Positions 5,028-41,956 are shown, counted from the first letter of the whole stretch. The stretch: DNA of 63,735 bases, filler included, from Licmophora abbreviata (GCA_900291995.1; 12 parts of 12 records of this genome joined end to end with filler, not necessarily neighbours in it), one strand, 5' to 3'. Numbers and translations are program-made. Notes: generated by a model not told the origin, from the sequence alone.

Positions 5028-6818
5028 GTTGCAGGTTTCGTAAGAGAGTTTGCGTGTCGTGCTACGATTTCAAGCTAGAGAGCTTTGGTTCCGCCTGAGG
5101 AGACGAGCAATGACCGCAATCAGTTGTGTGAGAGAAAATTGCCGCCTTGGTCAAACGTGGACTTGTTGCTGAGATCGGTAGCTGCGTCTTGATCCTTGTA
5201 GAGTCGAGACAGGTAGAGGAGACGTCCATCCAGAAGGCGCAGTGCATACGAATCGACGCCAAGAAAGCAGGACACACGACCACATTCGAAAACGAAGCCT
5301 CACCTTTCACGCAAGATTGTCTAAAGCCGCTGTGGGGGAAAATTTTGACTGATTTCAGTATGTCCCTCTTGATTTCGAGGAACGATACGAGTGGATGAAC
5401 GAATGGAACTCAACGACAAGCTCCGCTCTTTTACAAATCGAGGACGCTTTGTGTATTGTGGGTGATGGCTCACACAACTTTGATGAGAACGAGAAGGTTG
5501 CGGGCGAGACGCAAGAGAAGTTGAACCCGCGCTGACGAGGTTGTGACCCAAAACCTGTCCGAGTCATCGTAGAAACCTACGCAGTTCCCCAATGATGAAT
5601 CAGTCATTTCCGAGATCTCTTACGTCACCGACCCGCGACTCTTGAATTTTGGCCAATCAGAATGAGAGCTGAAGGCGCACGAACTCGAACCGACAGGCTT
5701 CTTGTTCATCCGAATTCTCAGGGGAGTTAGACCAAACATGGGTGGCTACGTGCGCAGCTCTTGCTGCTTACCAAGGTTACTCTACTTCTCTAGCTAGAGT
5801 AGCCAGGTCACCTTGGATGCGTGAGCCAATATTGGAGGGGCAACTCAAAGACCAACCTTATCCTCAAACAGGAATTGCCTTATGTAGCAATTATCTGCTC
5901 ACGAGTACGGTGATCTAGCCGCTAGTTCGAAGACTACACGGGGGCTCACTGTCCCGTAATGTGATCTAGGAATTCCGCTTCATGCAATTTGCGGCATTAG
6001 TCGAGATAGGGGAGACAACACACATGACTGAGGAGCCTATAGAGGTGGCAAACCCGGCTGGCGGATTGCTGTGGAAGCTGCAGGGCACGATAGATCATAC
6101 GCATACTACTTGTACCATGTATATCATACTGGTGCTTCGTAACATGCAGAAGGAGAGCCATCCTTCCGGACATGTCATATGCAGATGGTATCGGATGAGA
6201 TATCACGTCTCGCCGACGAGCCTGCCATTCTCCGTTCTGGGTTGTGTGACCACAATCGGAGATTAGAGGAAAGCTCAGCCCACGTGCCATAAGTACCAGC
6301 TGCATCACGTGACAGTACAGAATTTTTGTCTGAACGCTCAGAAGCTTGCAGCAAGGTTGCTTCCTACCGGTATTGAAGTCTTGGTCCACTAGAGCTGACC
6401 GCAACAGCAGCCGGAACCCACGCCTTCGCGGATCGAGCAATGCAACGAAACGATGGAGACTTGCTGGCCCGCATTCCCACACAGGGGGCTCAATACGGTC
6501 CAGCTCTGGTAGCCAAGATCCCCGGACCGGGGAAGGATACATGTCCACAGCTAATAAGGCACCCTCCAATGACCCATTGGGCACGTACGGAAACGGAAAT
6601 TGGAAACAGAGAAGCTACTCAACTCAGCGGAAAGAACAGTTAACCCATATGGAAAAGATCGCTATCCGCACCAATTCCATTATCGCTATCCGCGCCTCGA
6701 TCGCTCTCATCTGAGCAACGCCTTCGGGCATAATCAGCTTGCGCCGACATTTAGTCTTGAGGACATCATCATCATGTGAGATGCATTCTTGGTTCATGGC
6801 GTGGTGTTCGAGCGATAC

Positions 6819-8997
6819 TTAGTACCGCTCGTATCCTCCACCGCCGCCTCCGTATCCACCGCGATCGTCATAGCCCCCGCCGCCTCCTCCTCCGCCGCCT
6901 CCATATCCACCTAGTGAAACAAAACATACAAAACAGTGAGGTCATTATGCTGGCATTGGGTCTCTAGTAGAGAAGCGTTCGGCCGCGCAATCAGTCGTTC
7001 GCCCTGGCAAGAGGGTCTCGGAGGACATTGTACACTTGGAGAGCGTCAAATTTGGCATGGTGAAGGTGCGTCAAAATGTGGACCAGCATTTGGGTTCATG
7101 GACTCTTCGGGGACAACCTTCAGGCGTTAATACAACGTCGAGCATCCGCCTGGCCGCCAGCGCAGAATCACTCAGCACGGAATGTCTTCGAGATTAATCG
7201 ACGTCGGCGAGTTTGTCAAAACCGTCCTTCGCGAGGGGAGCCAGATTGTGCAAAAACCAAGTCTGCACTGAAGGCAAGCTGGGGACAGGACCGGGGATCT
7301 CTTGGACGTACCCTTTAGGAGAAGTCGAGAATGGGACCAGGAGCATTCACGGTCGAACCAAGAGATCGCGTCAAGGTGCTCAAGCTGAGATAGGAGCATG
7401 GTGGAATATGTCTCTCCGCTCTAGGTGCAAGGAGAAAGATCAATCACTGGACTTCGTCTTGGGGAACACCACAACAACCAGAAGGAAGGCGAAGTGGACT
7501 TGGGGCCACCTTGGGGTCGTCTTGCCTCGCGAACAACTGCCTTTCGCCTCTTGCCAGCTAGCCAATCTGAACGCTGTTCTTGTGCGCGGCCTGCATCACC
7601 AGGACACGAATGGGAGATTTCAGGACACACACCATATATCACTTACCACCACCGCTTCCGCCGCCGTAGCCGTCATTGTACGAGTCGTAGCGTCCTCCCC
7701 CTCCGCCACGCCCTCCACCATAGCCTCCACCGCTGTAGCCTCCTGTTGAAATGGAAGAAGCGAAAGAATGTTAGCTCAATCCATAACTCGAAAATGAAGG
7801 AGCAGCAAGCAAAGTCGAAGACGGCGCAAAGATGCAGGGCAGTTTGCGCTTCTTTGTCACAATAAGTCGAGACCATCACTCTTGCGACAAAACACCATAT
7901 AACTTACCACCGCCGCCGCCACCATAGCCATCACTGTACGAGTCCTGGCGTCCGCCGCCGCGGCCTCCATAGCCACCGCCGCCGCCTCCACCACTGTATC
8001 CTCCTCCTGTTGAAATGCGAGACAATCGAAATGGTTAATGATGATCCAGAGGCGAAGGATTGAAGTGGGCGACGAGGAGTAACATTGTAAAAGCTCCAAG
8101 AGGCATTTTCTAGACATCATGCCTCAACGCCAGATCACTTACCACCACTGTAGCCTCCACCATAGCCGCTGTCGTTGTAGCCTCCTCCACTATATCCGCC
8201 GCCACCTCCATATCCGCCGCCACCACGGCCGCCGCCACCTCCCTTGGGCTGGGCCTCGTTGACACGCAACGTACGACCATCAAGTTCTTGGCCGTTGATC
8301 TTCTCACAGGCTTGTTCTGCATCCGCAGCCGGCATGGTGATGAACGCGAAACCACGAACCTTGCCCGTGTCCCGATCAGTCGGCAAGAAGCAGTCACTCA
8401 CAGTGCCATACTGTTCAAAGAGACGGCGCACAGCTTCTTCGGGAGTATCGAAAGCGAGATTCCCGACGTAGAGCTTGACACTTTCGTTGCCGGCCGAGTT
8501 AAAGCCACCTGCACCTCCAGGTCCTGCGCCCTTCGGGCGACTCTCATTAACGCGAATGGTACGGCCATCCAACTGAGCCTGGTCCATCTTGCTAATGGCA
8601 GCCTCGCCCTCGGCACGGCTGGCGAAGGTCACGAATCCAAAGCCGCGAGGACGGTTCGTGGCCCGTTCCACAGGGAGAAAGACATCTGTGATGCTTCCAA
8701 ACTGACCAAACTCCTGACGGAGACGGTTTTCGTCAGTAGCTGCGACGGTAGAAGAACAGGAGACAAGAAGTGCGGGTGAGATTGGGCTACTGGGTTGAAG
8801 ATACGATTGCTCCGTAGAAACAATACTGAGTGCCACGATACGATCATTGGCATCAACTTGTCGCCCACGCGCTTTCTTCCGCACCGATGATCTCATCCGT
8901 CGCTTCAGAAAGCACCACCACCACACCGAGGATTCACTGGTTCAGACTTCGACTTACAGTAATCGAGATTGCCAATGTAAAGCTTGCACTCATCGCC
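6819..8997 (-). CDS. Glycine-rich RNA-binding protein with two RRMs; exons 8958-8997 (5' cut by gap), 8143-8739, 7908-8006, 7647-7742, 6819-6910
   Basis: RNP2/RNP1 motifs KLYIGNL...RGFGFVTF and KLYVGNL...RGFAFITM. All four introns are GTAAGT...YAG and phase 1, giving a continuous GGY/RGG tail that ends GGGYERY*. Confidence 0.9.
7312..7420 (-). other. Candidate poison (PTC-containing) cassette exon in the last intron of the glycine-rich RBP gene
   Basis: Minus strand: TGATTGATCTTTCTCCTTGCACCTAG|109 nt|GTACGT. In the incoming phase 1 it reads [13 protein letters not shown], with TGA at 7382-7380. Confidence 0.55.
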
Positions 8998-9097
8998 NNN
9001 NNNNNNNNNNNNNNNNNNNNNNNNNNNNNNNNNNNNNNNNNTTAATTAATTAANNNNNNNNNNNNNNNNNNNNNNNNNNNNNNNNNNNNNNNNNNNN
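8998..9097. other. Artificial contig spacer N44-TTAATTAATTAA-N44 (also at 10126, 14852, 18127, 23937, 30996, 38341, 46403, 48699, 54536, 62096; each 100 nt)
   Basis: Identical 100-nt blocks with a stop-in-six-frames linker. At two of them the flanks overlap exactly (23888-23936 = 24037-24085; 38310-38340 = 38441-38471). Confidence 0.98.
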
Positions 9098-31309: not shown

Positions 31310-33179
31310 CTACCTCTCCTTCAGTCGGTTTTGCATAATGGCGAGACCCAGCTCGTAAATAGTCGATGATAATAGACGCTCTTCTCTCTTCTGCGCCGTC
31401 TTTTCCGATGAGCTCCGACTCTCGAGTGCCTCGATCTTGTCTTGCTTCTCCTTAAGCTTCGATTTGCACTCCTGGAGGGCCACGAGATACTTCTCCTGGA
31501 ATTTGGCTAGCGTCCGCTTAGTATAAGCCTCGAGCTTGTCCTTGTCGGAGCCAATCTTGGCCTTTTCGGCTTCTTTGTCGGCCAGCTCGCCCTTGAGTCG
31601 AGAGAGCTCGGACTGAAGATTATCCACATCTCCATCCGACACAGAGCTGGATACCTGTTCAGTTCCTTGAGACTTGAGCTCATCAAGATCGTCTCGCAGC
31701 TTTTTGTTCTCAACCTCCAGTCGCAAAGTCTTCTCCCTGGCTTCACTGATACTGTCGGCGCTGGTAAGAGACAATCCCTTCATGGCGGATCCCACTTCGT
31801 CATCCAAATGTGCCCCATCGTCATGCTGTGCTTTGAGCTCTCGCAATTCCTCTTCGTACAGTTTCTTGGCATTGTCCGCAGCGGCAAGTTTGCTCTTGAA
31901 CTCGGTCGTTTCGGTGGTCGCTATTTTTGCCACTGAGCCCAACTCTTCGTTCTCCTTTTCGAGTTGCGCAACCTTGGACTGCAAACCTTCTACGCTTTTT
32001 TGCAGCTTCGGAAGTCTCTTCACATCATTCTCCAAGTCCATAATTTGACGAAGATAGGATGCGGCTTGGTCTTCCAGTTCCGTCATTTGCTGGTTCATGA
32101 CCCCAACCCCTTCGAGCTTCTTGCGATACGACAAGACCGTCGCTTCCGCCTTTCGCAACTGCTCCACCTTGGCATTGGCAACATCCAGTTCATCCGCCAT
32201 CTGATCTTTCGAGTCCTCCAGCTCGAGAACTTTTGCCTTGTGATCGTCCAGTTCCGACGTTGCATTCTGCAACTCTTCCTCGGCCGTGATGAGTTCATCT
32301 TGGCGTTTGACCAACCGATCCTGAAGATCCTCGACAAGTGCACGGAGTTTCTTTTGTGCATTCTCGCTGTCTTCAGACTGTAGCGCTGCCTGAGACTTAA
32401 ACGACGCCAGTTCCCGCCGCGCATCCATCAGAGCCTTTTCCAGCTCTTCACGATCACCAGCCGAGAAACCGTCATGAGCGAGCGAAGTCGGGGTTTCGGC
32501 TGCATGATCGAAGACCATTTCATTATCATCACTGTCTGACCCATCTTCATCTTCCTCGTGCTCGTAATCGCTCAAGCGAGCCAAGGATCGTTCGAGAATT
32601 CCCTTCATTTCGACTTGATTCTCACCCGACATGGTCATGATGCGCGAGACGAACTCGCCCCGATGTTCGCACGTCACGGCAGCCGCCGCCACCAATTCGA
32701 GCAAACTTGCAACAGCAGCCTTGTCCCCACTACGCGAAATACTGTTCACATGATCCGACTGTACGTCAAAATCGGCGTCTTTCTGCAAAACGTCATGAAA
32801 GAAGGTTTCAAGATTGCGTAGGAGCTTTCGAATGTTGGAAGCCTTGAGGGCCCAGTTGTCACCGAGGTGACGAGCAATCGTCGTAGGATCAAAGTAATCT
32901 GGAGCGCTGAAGTAATGTTGTTGGAAAAATGAGGGAGAATGGAAAGAAAGGCCATGATGTGAGCAGAGGTCACGACTCACAACAGAGCAGAAGTGACATC
33001 CGATTGAAGTTCCAGAATTCGCCAAAAACTCCCACGTACATTTCGGACAGAGCCTCAAAGATGGCCACTCCATCACTCATTCCTTCTAGAGTATCCGGTG
33101 GATTTTCGGAAAGAGTCGGAAAGGTCCCGAGGAATTCAATCATGGCTCGATAGCGAGCTTCATCTTGTTCGGTAGCCAT
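31310..33179 (-). CDS. HOOK: HOOK-family coiled-coil protein (intron 32907-33039)
   Basis: N-terminal Hook/CH-like domain MSDGVAIFEALSEI|APDYF...NWALKASNIRKL, a long heptad coiled coil and C-terminal REERLLSSTIYELGL. Intron GTACGT...CAG. Confidence 0.8.
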
Positions 33180-33661
33180 GCTGGCGAGCAGCGAAACGCT
33201 CTGGTGTCGGCGCGGTTTTCGACTAAATTCACACCAGAAATTTGACTCTCACTCTTTCGTAGGATGAAAGTTAAGAGAGACCCTGCGATTTTAGTTTGAT
33301 GAAAGAAATGACTGCCACGCAATGTCAAGCCCCAGATGAGCACAGAAACTACCGGTACGACGACAAGAATGACAACAGAGGCGTGTCCACTCGACCGCTA
33401 TTGGGTCTCGGTCGGAGTTTGGCATGCGCGCTCTCGCTGTTGTCGACTGTGTTGCCGGCGCATGCTTTGTCTAATCTTATCAAATTAAAGAGTATGCATA
33501 CATATATGAATTTTGGACACTACTGTATGTATACAAACTAAATGATTAGCGAACACTAATCAATACTACTTAGGAGACTGGTCACATTGGAGTTCGCACA
33601 TCTCCTGGCCTCGCCGTTGAGCGAAAAAGTCACTTCTCCGAGCGGAGCGACCACCACCACC

Positions 33662-34395
33662 ATGTCGAGTTCGGACGTTTGTACTTCGGAGTTCTGCAAT
33701 GCGGGCTGGTCCGAGGTCCTCACCCACCTTTCACCCTATGGGTGGGCGAATTTTGGAGTTGCTTTTGGCCTCGGATTGTCCGTTGTAGGAGCAGCCTGGG
33801 GCATTTGGCTCACGGGATCCAGTCTGGTCGGTGCTGCCGTCAAGGCGCCGCGCATTCGAAGCAAGAACTTGATCAGGTACGTAAAAATCACGTAGAAATA
33901 GTACCAGCCGGAGTCCTGGCGGTCGACGGCAAGAAATATTTCTTCCTCTCTTTTGTTTGCTGTTGTATCGGACCCCGCCTTGATGACTGACCCCCCTTGC
34001 ATACTCTGTTCCACCCTTTGTCGTCCGTCAGTGTTATTTTCTGTGAAGCAACTGCGATCTACGGCGTCATTATGGCAATTATCTTGACCAACAAGGTCAA
34101 GAGCCCCGAAAGCGGGGACTATTACCTGGACGAAAACTGGGACTTTGCAGGTTACTATTACGCTGGATTCGCCATGTTCTCTGCTGGATGTTCTGTTGGA
34201 CTGACCAATATTGCTTCAGGAGTATCAGTGGGTATTGCAGGTTCCAGTTGTGCCATTGCAGATGCACAAGATGCATCCTTGTTTGTCAAGATTTTGATTG
34301 TCGAGATTTTCGCATCGGCCTTGGGTATTTTCGGAATCATCGTTGGGATCATTACCAGCAACTCGGCAGACTTTCCCATTGCGGCGTTGGAGTAA
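33662..34395 (+). CDS. VMA16: V-ATPase proteolipid subunit c'' (intron 33877-34031)
   Basis: GLSVVGAAWGI..TGSSLVGAAVKAPRIRSKNLIS|VIFCEATAIYG...LFVKILIVEIFASALGIFG. Confidence 0.95.
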
Positions 34396-38953: not shown

Positions 38954-41754
38954 TTAATCCTCTCCGATAGGAGCACTGTCGCTAGCTAGCTCGACAATGA
39001 TTTCGGGTTCGAAACTCTCTTGGTCTTCCCCAGATACCGGCACCTCAATCTTCTCCTCTTCGTCCTTCCCCACACTTCCGGGACAGTTCGCCTCGATGAA
39101 CTCGGCGACCATTGGGCTCTTCTCCTCTATGTCGTGCACAGCCTTTGCTGCGATTTCTTCCCGTGTTGTAGGTTTCGCCTCCTCTGCGTTGGCGATACCA
39201 CTATCTTCATCTTCTTTCTCCAGCGTAATCTCAACAACAGGGGGAGGCTCTTCTTCATTTTTGATGACGCCCAACTGAAACAAGGCGTTGGCCTCTTCGT
39301 CTTTTTCCAACCCCACCTGCCCAATCACTTCTTTGCGCTTCGTTTCGAGAATTGCGTTCACTTCTTCCGCAGGTGCACCCAAACTCTTCAGGACAGCACC
39401 ACCAAAAGGCAAGGTCAGTAGTAAGTTGTCCTCCGGCAATATGGGAACCATGGCGGCAACGTCTAGTGTCTTCTGCAGTCGCTGCGCATGATCAGCATCG
39501 CTGGCACGAGCGAATATCTTCTTGTCTGGATAGAGTCGTCTCAGGGCAATGACAGCTCGATTACATTGGGCCTTGTCAGCAATGCATACAACAACAGCCT
39601 TGGCCTTTTCAACTCCAAACGCTTCTGCCACCTCAGGTCTGCCAATGTCTCCGTAAAACACCGGAAGGCCCTTGTTTCGAGCTTCGATTGCCTTGTTCGG
39701 GTCAATCTCAAGACCAACGTACTTGATAAGCTTGCGATCGAGCAGGTCGCAGACGACCCTACCCACAGCACCATATCCCACCACAACGACAAAGTCATCA
39801 CTCTCTTTGATCTCGTTCGCGTCGCGATCCTGCCCGAGGTAATGCGTGAAGTCACTCTCCTCCTCCAGCCGTTTTGCGATTCGCGTACCCATCTGTTCTA
39901 GTAATGGAGTCAGCGCCATGGTCAGACTCACACTTGTGAGCATGAGCTTCGTTGTGGGCTTGTCGAGAATTCCCAGAGAGCGTGCTAGCCCGAACGCGAC
40001 GAAAGCGAATTCTCCGCCCTGTGCAAGAATCAGTCCAGTTTGCTGAGAGGTGGACAAGCTCAAGCCGAACGCCAATGATACCGATGTCAACACCGCTGCT
40101 TTGATAGCAATAATACCAAGCACAATAGCTCCTACCGTCGGGAGGTTGGACAGGATCAGGGCCAGATCGATTTCGAACCCAACGGTCACAAAGAAGAGAC
40201 CCAGCAGGATACCGCGAAACGGAGCAATGTCGGCCTCAATCTGGTACCGATACTTCGTTTCAGAGAGTAACACTCCTGCCAAGAAGGCCCCCAGCGTATT
40301 GCTCAAACCCAGCCCCTCCGTCATAAAGGACATGCTGAGTACTGTCAGTAGAATGACTCCCAAAAAGGCTTCTTGCGAATTCGCCCCAGCAACAACCTTA
40401 AACAGAGGATTGAGCAGGACCCTTCCCGTAAACGCAATTACGCCGAGCGCCATGGCAGCCTTGAGAACAGCACTTCCGAGCGCCGCTGCTAAACCTGTTC
40501 CATTTCCAGCCAGAATAGGAGTCACGACCAGAAGTGGTACGACAGCCAAATCCTGAAAGAGCAGGACACCAAACGAAGCCTTTCCGTACCGAGTCGCTAG
40601 CTGCTCCTTGTCCTTCAGCAGCTGAAGGACAAAGGCAGAGCTCGACAGAGCCAGTCCACCTCCAAGGACCACCAATGCAGGACCAGGAAGACCAAACAAA
40701 CTTCCAGCGCCTGCCACCGCGAGGGCAGTCAGCACAAACTGACTAAGACCCAGCCCGAAGACATCCTTGCGCATCTGCATCAAACGTTCCACGCTGAGCT
40801 CGATTCCCATCTCGAAAAGAAAGAACACAATCCCAAGCTCCGCTAGGACCTCTGTGGTATGAATTCCGCTGATGAGACCACATCCCGTGGGACCCAAAAG
40901 CATTCCCGATGCCAAGAATCCGAGAATTGGAGAAACACCGATACGCTGGGAGAGCGGAGTAATGAGTGCCGTCGTCAAGAGAAGAATCAAGGCGTCAGAC
41001 TTGTTACCCTTCATATAGTCTCCCAAGTCTCCTAAGGCTTCTTGGAGAGTCCTTCCCGTATTCCGAGACGCACTCCGCATGGAATCCTGAATGATTTCAG
41101 CAGTCGTCTCTTGCTTTTTGAATATAGATGACGAGACACGAGCTTCGCCTCCGCGGGAAACACGCGGAGCCAGCTGATGAATCTCTTCACCCCCACTGTA
41201 CGGCTGATACTGCGTCTGAGGCTGCTGTGTCGTTGTGAAGACAAAAACTGACAGTGCAAAGGCGGCCGCCGCAAGCAAACTTCGCCGTTTTCGTCGCTGC
41301 CAACACACGACCTGCTGGACCCAGACACCGGTCCTCGACGCCACTCTTTGACAGACCCTCAGGACACCATCTTTTTCATTGGAATTCTCCGGTACATCAG
41401 AGCTCTAAACAGAATCACGTTCAAGGAGAAATTAAACGAAAGAAACAATCAGGAAACAAGACGAAATAGAGCCACGCATGGCTGTGTCAAGCGTGATGCC
41501 ACGTGGGCCAAGCGCAAACGTACTTCTACATCGATCGCGTCGTCACTTGCTGCACCTAAAATCCCGCTATTTCGATCCGTTCTGCCCGCTGAGACGATCG
41601 TTCTATGCTTCAGGATAGTAGCACGTGGCGCCAGAGATCTAGAGCGGACACATCGAAATTGTGATTTCGGAGCTGGGTTCAACAACGCCTCTGAATCGTC
41701 CCACCGGAGAGCCAAGCATAGCACCAATGCATTTAAACAAAGCAACCCCCTCAT
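38954..41754 (-). CDS. KEA: Plastid K+/H+ antiporter, CPA2/KEA family with KTN (TrkA-N) domain (intron 41405-41523)
   Basis: SPILGFL, ELSVERL..MRKDVFGLG, LLFQDLAVVP, QGGEFAFV and KTN GYGAVG...FYGD. Exon 1 (ATG 41754) encodes a signal + transit peptide and splices GTACGT...TAG in phase 0. Confidence 0.9.
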
Positions 41755-41956
41755 ACTCTTATTCTGGGACGTCAAAAGTGGATTCAATTGCACTTCCTTT
41801 GTAATTGCAGTGTGGTTCCGGCTCCGATCATGTTCACAGTTGTGATGTCGCCATTCACGGGCACGGTGTTTCGAAACTGGGTTTTCACGTTGAGCGCAGT
41901 ACATATTCTACGACAAGACGAGCTTCTACTCGCGCACGCGGTGAAGGGTGATCAAT

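Follow-up and report, generated by a model that had tools for sequence, protein, structure and literature searches.

The 63,735-nt stretch of Licmophora abbreviata DNA analysed here (assembly GCA_900291995.1, 12 records joined end to end with filler; hereafter the window) carries on its minus strand, at positions 8997 to 6819, a gene for an RNA-binding protein with two RNA recognition motif (RRM) domains and a Gly/Tyr-rich tail split over four exons, whose last intron is oversized. With a confidence just short of an even chance, we propose that this 736-nt intron would act as a regulatory module for unproductive processing of the pre-mRNA and is not neutral filler. Regulated unproductive processing is the most economical explanation for a last intron that recurs in oversized form among diatoms and is constrained in sequence in one clade. 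The general idea of a regulatory last intron is partly supported by the comparisons below; the specific cassette exon proposed in an initial annotation of the window, its coupling with nonsense-mediated mRNA decay (NMD) and feedback by the protein are what we infer, and for the window itself the claim is only a candidate.

The initial annotation had singled out the last intron for its size, and the other introns bear this out. The three others of the gene measure 218, 136 and 165 nt, and ten other credible introns of the window, chosen by a heuristic that joins open reading frames, measure 80 to 155 nt, with one further, unverified candidate of 346 nt; the mean Phaeodactylum intron is given as 142 bp in the available part of its re-annotation (PMC5859163). 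Neither a second copy of the intron within the window nor an internal repeat was found, and a search for inverted repeats between positions 6700 and 8200 found none; on these grounds a transposon origin of the long intron was rejected.

Metagenome contigs yielded 80 loci when scanned, among them L001 to L035, which look like diatom relatives, and collapsing near-identical contigs gave 12 genomic lineages that include the tail (Table 1). The position of the last intron is constant among them, in phase 1 within a Gly codon and before a terminal exon encoding G-Y-G..Y-x-R-Y. The intron is at least 4.5 times as long as the other tail introns in five of the 12 lineages, with L029, which is cut by its contig end, probably a sixth. 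On a quick RRM-core tree of 23 rows, which left out the near-duplicates L012, L013, L019, L021, L022, L024, L032, L034 and L035 as well as L010, L016, L026, L030 and L036 to L080, four of the lineages (L018, L029, L020 and L023) form one clade with the mRNA contig L027 (SH-like approximate likelihood ratio test, SH-aLRT, 97). L011 pairs with the short-intron lineage L033, the placement of the window is not settled, and 10 of the 20 inner branches are open. An oversized last intron occurs at no fewer than three separate places on this tree. The expectation in the initial annotation that the long intron would be conserved in orthologs therefore holds in part, with an oversized intron in five of 12 lineages and a constrained sequence in one clade.

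Table 1. Length of the last intron and of the other tail introns in 12 diatom lineages.
Lineage	Last intron (nt)	Other tail introns (nt)	Remark
Window	736	136, 165	
L011	918	95, 99	
L018	1121	91, 97	
L020	1257	97, 123	
L023	1414	108	
L029	at least 278	95, 71, 84	contig ends
L006	271	104-149	boundaries read by eye
L031	330	327	
L001	78	94-227	
L017	80	63-91	
L025	70	86-87	
L033	95	86	boundaries read by eye

The normal ..Y-D-x-R-Y stop closes the mRNA-like contigs L002, L003, L005 and L027, which show the productive junction only. Among the C-termini of 120 homologs, many end in donor read-through (..GGK..); being mostly gene calls on genomic contigs, they cannot reveal isoforms. The deposited P0030 model of Fistulifera solaris ends ..GGGKFRER, a read-through of a GTAAG donor, and probably misses the small terminal exon, as would be likely where the last intron is long. 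In L011 the last intron, of 918 nt, contains a tandem duplication of 216 nt (83% identity; L011:5215-5690), each copy of which ends in a pyrimidine tract followed by CAG.

Within the clade of L018, L029, L020 and L023, the long intron is conserved beyond what its surroundings would suggest. The coding DNA of the RRM domains is 71-74% identical in the clade (about 74% between L020 and L023), and for the short intron 1 the alignment of L020 with L023 does not surpass that of shuffles (z -0.7). The long introns of the same pair align with a z of 51.6 over their 3' 400 nt (283 of 360 aligned columns identical) and of 10.5 over their 5' 300 nt; the 5' 278 nt of L018 and L029 give 11.9, and the 3' 400 nt of L018 against L020 or L023 give 3.7 and 8.2. 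Since tblastx matches fall in all six frames and on both strands, the conservation of the long intron is non-coding, and the possibility that the conserved blocks encode protein was rejected.

In a three-way alignment of these introns one 12-mer, ATGTGAGTCTCA, is invariant. It includes GTGAGT, a donor consensus, which TAA/TGA closely precedes; the real acceptor is 209-238 nt further downstream, and in none of the three introns does another internal donor score better. A second conserved block, GCTCCACA, lies downstream of the 12-mer. A positionally conserved acceptor was looked for in the long introns of the clade and not found, so that an alternative 5' splice site is as compatible with the alignment as a cassette exon. 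A 22-mer, GTGGAAGTTTCGAGTACCATGG, is also present in one to three copies per intron (L018:3691, L020:2114 and L023:1776/2016/2256, plus the twin contigs L019, L021 and L024), and all 11 hits with zero to two substitutions lie within the last intron, in sense orientation; one further hit, with five substitutions, falls in the Gly-rich coding part of L003 and looks like chance. The 22-mer sits in a small predicted hairpin of weak energy with one compensatory pair (CATCAC/GGTG versus CATAAC/TTATG). Judged by these alignments, the last intron clearly has a function in this clade, whether as RNA or as DNA, and its core resembles a splice donor. Outside the intron, a 40-nt block upstream of the coding region (L018:1569-1608 and L023:45-84) is 95% identical, compared with about 73% for the coding DNA, and may be a conserved element of the 5' untranslated region (UTR) or of the promoter of this gene.

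Inside the window intron, the initial annotation had described a 109-nt cassette exon that follows a branch-like motif (TGATTGAT) and an acceptor AG and is closed by a GTACGT donor. Its coordinates for all four elements are correct (Table 2), and a script translation reproduces both its reading of the exon and the stop 68 nt upstream of the junction. This distance exceeds the 50-55 nt of the NMD rule that depends on the exon junction complex (EJC); nearly any 109-nt non-coding insert would yield such a stop, which for this reason is no evidence. The GTACGT donor type is, as had been noted, also found in the KEA-like and HOOK introns of the window, and in a V-ATPase c-subunit intron as well.

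Splice sites were scored with two position weight matrices, one built from 14 window introns, four of them from this gene, and compared with 2000 dinucleotide shuffles of the last intron, the other built from 48 diatom introns including the tail introns of relatives, with 1000 shuffles for the donor. With the 14-intron matrix GTACGT scores 9.35, within the range of real donors (7.6-13.1), and the next internal GT scores 4.7; with the 48-intron matrix the two values are 10.5 and 3.7. An equal or better donor arises in 10% of shuffles with the first matrix and in 34 of 1000 with the second. Only two things thus stand out in the window, the size of the intron and the presence of one strong internal donor, the latter at roughly the 3-10% level. 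The AG at 7386-7385 outscores the proposed acceptor and ranks first among internal AGs with the 48-intron matrix; an exon that begins there would be 73 nt long, with frame and TGA unchanged.

Upstream of the candidate exon, CCCCAAG is clustered on the sense strand (Table 2), and a clustered 7-mer of this kind arose in 15 of 2000 shuffles, in a test made post hoc. The sense motif CCCAAG occurs in two copies each in the last introns of L011 (inside its duplication), L020 and L023 and in none of those of L018, L006, L029 and L031, with a window background of 0.26 per kb. Because the motif was picked after viewing the data, CCCAAG is only a lead; that it is a shared cis-element is possible.

In the mechanism that we propose, a fraction of the pre-mRNA would be processed unproductively at the last intron. 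By a cassette route, the donor at 7311 would be paired with an internal acceptor, AG 7422-7421 or AG 7386-7385, and either exon would be read into the TGA at 7382-7380. By an alternative 5' splice site route, the donor at 7311 would replace that at 7646, requiring no internal acceptor, and the stop would be the TGA at 7640-7638, at which retention of the full intron would likewise end. Every route would remove the conserved ..GGYERY end, and both routes through the 7311 donor would leave a splice junction downstream of the stop, an arrangement that in animals and plants flags an mRNA for NMD. The output of productive mRNA could then be tuned, possibly by the protein itself. We infer the use of the internal sites of the window, the choice of route, the coupling to NMD and autoregulation. 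A wider reading would make the terminal intron an ancient, diatom-wide module of unproductive splicing, autoregulatory and coupled to NMD or nuclear detention, of which the window holds a divergent copy; its cis-elements would be lineage-specific, namely an internal 5' splice site, in one clade the 22-mer carried by a hairpin, and in other clades clusters of CCCAAG. Taken with these elements, this wider reading is rather doubtful.

The regulatory proposal has to be weighed against a neutral long intron, grown by insertion or slippage, in which the AG and GTACGT pair would be a chance pseudo-exon decoy in 700 nt, an explanation whose chances are substantial if somewhat below even. The observations that weigh against regulation begin with the relatives. 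Comparison of the window intron with the long introns of L011, L018, L020 and L023 gave chance-level matches only (E of 1.2 or more), and GTGGAAGTTTCGAGTACCATGG is absent from the window even with up to five substitutions allowed. Because no block of the clade is detectable in the window intron, the support from the clade reaches the window by analogy only, although at about 70% protein identity the missing similarity is unsurprising. The internal splice sites, which the initial annotation had expected to be conserved in orthologs, could be detected in none of the relatives. Five of the 12 lineages (L001, L017, L025, L033 and L031) make do with a last intron that is short or ordinary, so that an oversized one is not universal, and the long intron is either old and repeatedly shrunk or, less favourably for the proposal, repeatedly expanded. 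One short-intron pair, L018 and L020, likewise aligns better than shuffles (z 3.7).

The splice signals add to this side of the balance. The proposed acceptor scores 3.9 with the 14-intron matrix (real range 3.4-16.1), ranking third among internal AGs and being equalled or bettered in 95% of shuffles, and 2.7 with the 48-intron matrix against a real median of 10.5, ranking sixth; a donor and acceptor pair this good, 40-300 nt apart, arises in 5.5% of shuffles with the first matrix. The antisense strand of the window intron holds an equally good donor-like site (10.0 versus 10.5 on the sense strand). Across five long introns the score of the best donor is reached by 3.4% of shuffles in the window and by 32%, 60%, 33% and 37% in the others, and in two of the five (L018 and L023) the best antisense donor is at least as good as the best sense donor; the idea of one outstanding internal donor per long intron was rejected, being significant neither against shuffles nor against the antisense strand. 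The 50-55 nt rule stems from mammals and is only presumed for diatoms, and the internal splice sites and cassette of the window are candidates predicted from sequence. Folding of four segments around the candidate exon is no better than that of shuffles (z +0.4 to +1.2), giving no stable structure, and the GC content of the intron, 0.53, is near the window average of 0.51, as a neutral intron would have it. Against neutrality stand the same intron being oversized at several places on the ortholog tree, the demonstrable constraint in one clade, the CCCCAAG cluster, unlikely by chance albeit post hoc, and the lack of terminal inverted repeats or a second window copy as the mark of a transposon.

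The exact model of the initial annotation, in which exon definition leads to inclusion of the 109-nt exon 7420-7312, EJC-dependent NMD is set off by the TGA of this exon and the protein feeds back by favouring inclusion, is one version of regulation, and we consider it unlikely. The anatomy is as described, the donor type is in use by real introns of the window, and exon skipping is reported beside prominent intron retention in the available part of the Phaeodactylum re-annotation (PMC5859163). The acceptor is its weak point, being outscored by the AGs at 7313, 7268 or 7385 and conserved in no relative, and the model was built from the sequence only, with NMD and feedback assumed for diatoms. 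Within the regulatory proposal, a cassette using the 7385 acceptor is more unlikely still, and the rest of the probability falls to an alternative 5' splice site or to retention. It is very improbable that the intron instead hosts a separate functional RNA (a small nucleolar RNA (snoRNA), a microRNA-like hairpin or another non-coding RNA) or a nested gene. snoRNAs are often hosted in introns of genes for RNA-binding and ribosomal proteins, and the 22-mer of the clade lies in a hairpin with a compensatory pair; however, Rfam matched nothing in the window from 6000 to 9000 at E up to 1, nor in six ortholog loci (33,192 nt) at E up to 0.1, no segment folds better than shuffles, and there is no coding signal. 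By Rfam match or stable fold, the window intron is not a known host of non-coding RNA.

Contigs of two runs of unspecified kind and small share (0.09 and 0.05) were placed over the gene and showed no joints. Run X1 holds an exact piece at 7396-7480 (85 nt, depth 10.6, adaptor letters on both sides) that is contiguous across the proposed acceptor, from which nothing is drawn, as the run may be DNA or RNA. X1 8380-8552 and X2 8493-8644 are also exact, and the other pieces are short or low-likeness matches in Gly-rich repeats.

The homologs of the protein are diatom proteins, with identity up to about 78% (entries from Odontella, Fistulifera, Synedropsis and Thalassiosira), and its relatives are named "nucleolin" by JGI and, for the F. 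solaris entry, PUF60 by NCBI. Membership of RRM_1 (PF00076) is clear, at 119.2 bits against a cut-off of 20.7 and over two stretches. The class IV AtGRP7/8 type has one N-terminal RRM and a Gly-rich tail, whereas the window protein has two RRMs; it may perhaps work like GRP7, yet it is no member of the AtGRP7/8 class. In the script translation, ..GGSGG precedes the last intron and normal splicing gives ...GGYERY-stop. The 5' end of the gene is truncated by an N run (assembly gap) at about 8998-9045. A tandem duplication (window 7648-8022; 73% over 84 nt and 90% over 20 nt, with a spacing of 258-264 nt) comprises tail exons 3 and 4 and the 3' end of each preceding intron.

Table 2. Features of the RNA-binding protein gene and of its last intron in the window.
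Feature	Position	Strand	Remark
Exon 1 fragment	8958..8997	-	matches N-terminal KLYIGNLDY of Fistulifera solaris homolog P0030
Intron 1	8740..8957	-	218 nt, GTAAGT..CGCAG
Exon 2	8143..8739	-	two RRM domains and start of Gly/Tyr-rich tail; Pfam RRM_1, E 6.7e-35
Intron 2	8007..8142	-	136 nt
Exon 3	7908..8006	-	Gly-rich tail
Intron 3	7743..7907	-	165 nt
Exon 4	7647..7742	-	Gly-rich tail; ends in phase 1 within a Gly codon
Last intron	6911..7646	-	736 nt, GTAAGT..CACTAG, GC 0.53
TGA met at once if the 7646 donor is unused	7638..7640	-	..GGK-stop
Three sense CCCCAAG copies	7458..7516	-	starts 7516, 7505 and 7464, within 53 nt; upstream of the candidate exon
Branch-like motif TGATTGAT	7439..7446	-	position as named in the initial annotation
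Candidate 109-nt cassette exon	7312..7420	-	acceptor AG 7422-7421 after pyrimidine tract and TAG; predicted from sequence
In-frame TGA of candidate exon	7380..7382	-	68 nt before the 3' end of the exon
GTACGT	7306..7311	-	only strong internal donor-like site of the last intron
Last coding exon	6819..6910	-	..GGYERY and TAA, then 3' UTR; C-terminus like the ..YDRY end in mRNA contigs of relatives

Elsewhere in the window, introns with a GTACGT donor, 119-155 nt long, are found in a HOOK-domain gene at 31313-33039 (intron 33039-32907), a V-ATPase c subunit gene (ATP-synt_C) at 33560-34392 (intron 33877-34031) and a KEA-like K+/H+ exchanger gene (Na_H_Exchanger+TrkA_N) at 38957-41907 (intron 41523-41405). 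A second N run (assembly gap) lies at about 38430.

In animals, plants and fungi, RNA-binding proteins stabilise their own amounts through unproductive splicing. A gene family abundant in marine metatranscriptomes offers a test case for such control in diatoms, with a terminal intron that is oversized by a factor of 5-13 in several lineages and shows exon-like conservation in one clade. If the regulatory proposal is true, homeostasis by alternative splicing coupled to NMD (AS-NMD) would extend to a major phytoplankton group and would provide a handle on how diatoms tune these proteins, for instance to temperature or the light cycle; if the terminal intron is an ancient module, stramenopiles would gain their first described AS-NMD feedback circuit. 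The initial annotation had been aware of no such case in stramenopiles, and our literature search likewise turned up no description, in diatoms or stramenopiles, of poison exons or of AS-NMD acting on RNA-binding proteins. A review of NMD evolution contains no taxon terms of the stramenopile or diatom type, terms for stramenopiles, diatoms or protists are absent from the available part of Lareau & Brenner 2015 (PMC4379411), and the available part of the Phaeodactylum re-annotation makes no mention of NMD or premature stops (PMC5859163).

Unproductive splicing is well known as a means of self-control in GRP7/8, SR proteins and hnRNPs, and in Arabidopsis GRP7 and GRP8 autoregulation uses an alternative 5' splice site inside the intron, which introduces a premature stop codon and leads to NMD. 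The window gene resembles them in encoding a Gly-rich RNA-binding protein, in having an internal donor-like site and an immediate stop if the normal donor is unused, and in the unproductive mRNA predicted from these. Unlike GRP7, which has one RRM and one intron, the window protein has two RRMs and its gene at least four introns; the two are not orthologs, and for the window gene internal donor use and feedback are proposals. The poison cassette exons of SR proteins and hnRNPs have conserved flanks, according to the available part of Lareau & Brenner 2015 (PMC4379411). The diatom gene differs from these in that the conservation is in a clade other than that of the window and no conserved acceptor was found, and resembles them in being an RNA-binding protein gene with an unusually long intron that, in the L018 clade, shows non-coding conservation and a core like a 5' splice site with stop codons upstream.

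In mammalian CIRBP, terminal exons under temperature control (7a versus 7b/8) are coupled to NMD, as described in the available part of the report (PMC12795684). CIRBP has a single RRM and alternative terminal exons governed by temperature and CLK kinases, in contrast to the two RRMs of the window protein; both are RRM proteins with a Gly-rich tail, and in both the regulated event, proposed in the case of the window, would take place 3' in the gene, in the tail or beyond it (PMC12795684). Detained or retained introns, acting as valves on expression, offer a further parallel. Phaeodactylum genes with intron retention are reported, in the part of the re-annotation available, to be more highly expressed (PMC5859163), unlike what is proposed for the window gene; the likeness lies in a highly expressed regulator having a long intron that is probably spliced slowly and whose retention would lead to a stop directly after GGK.

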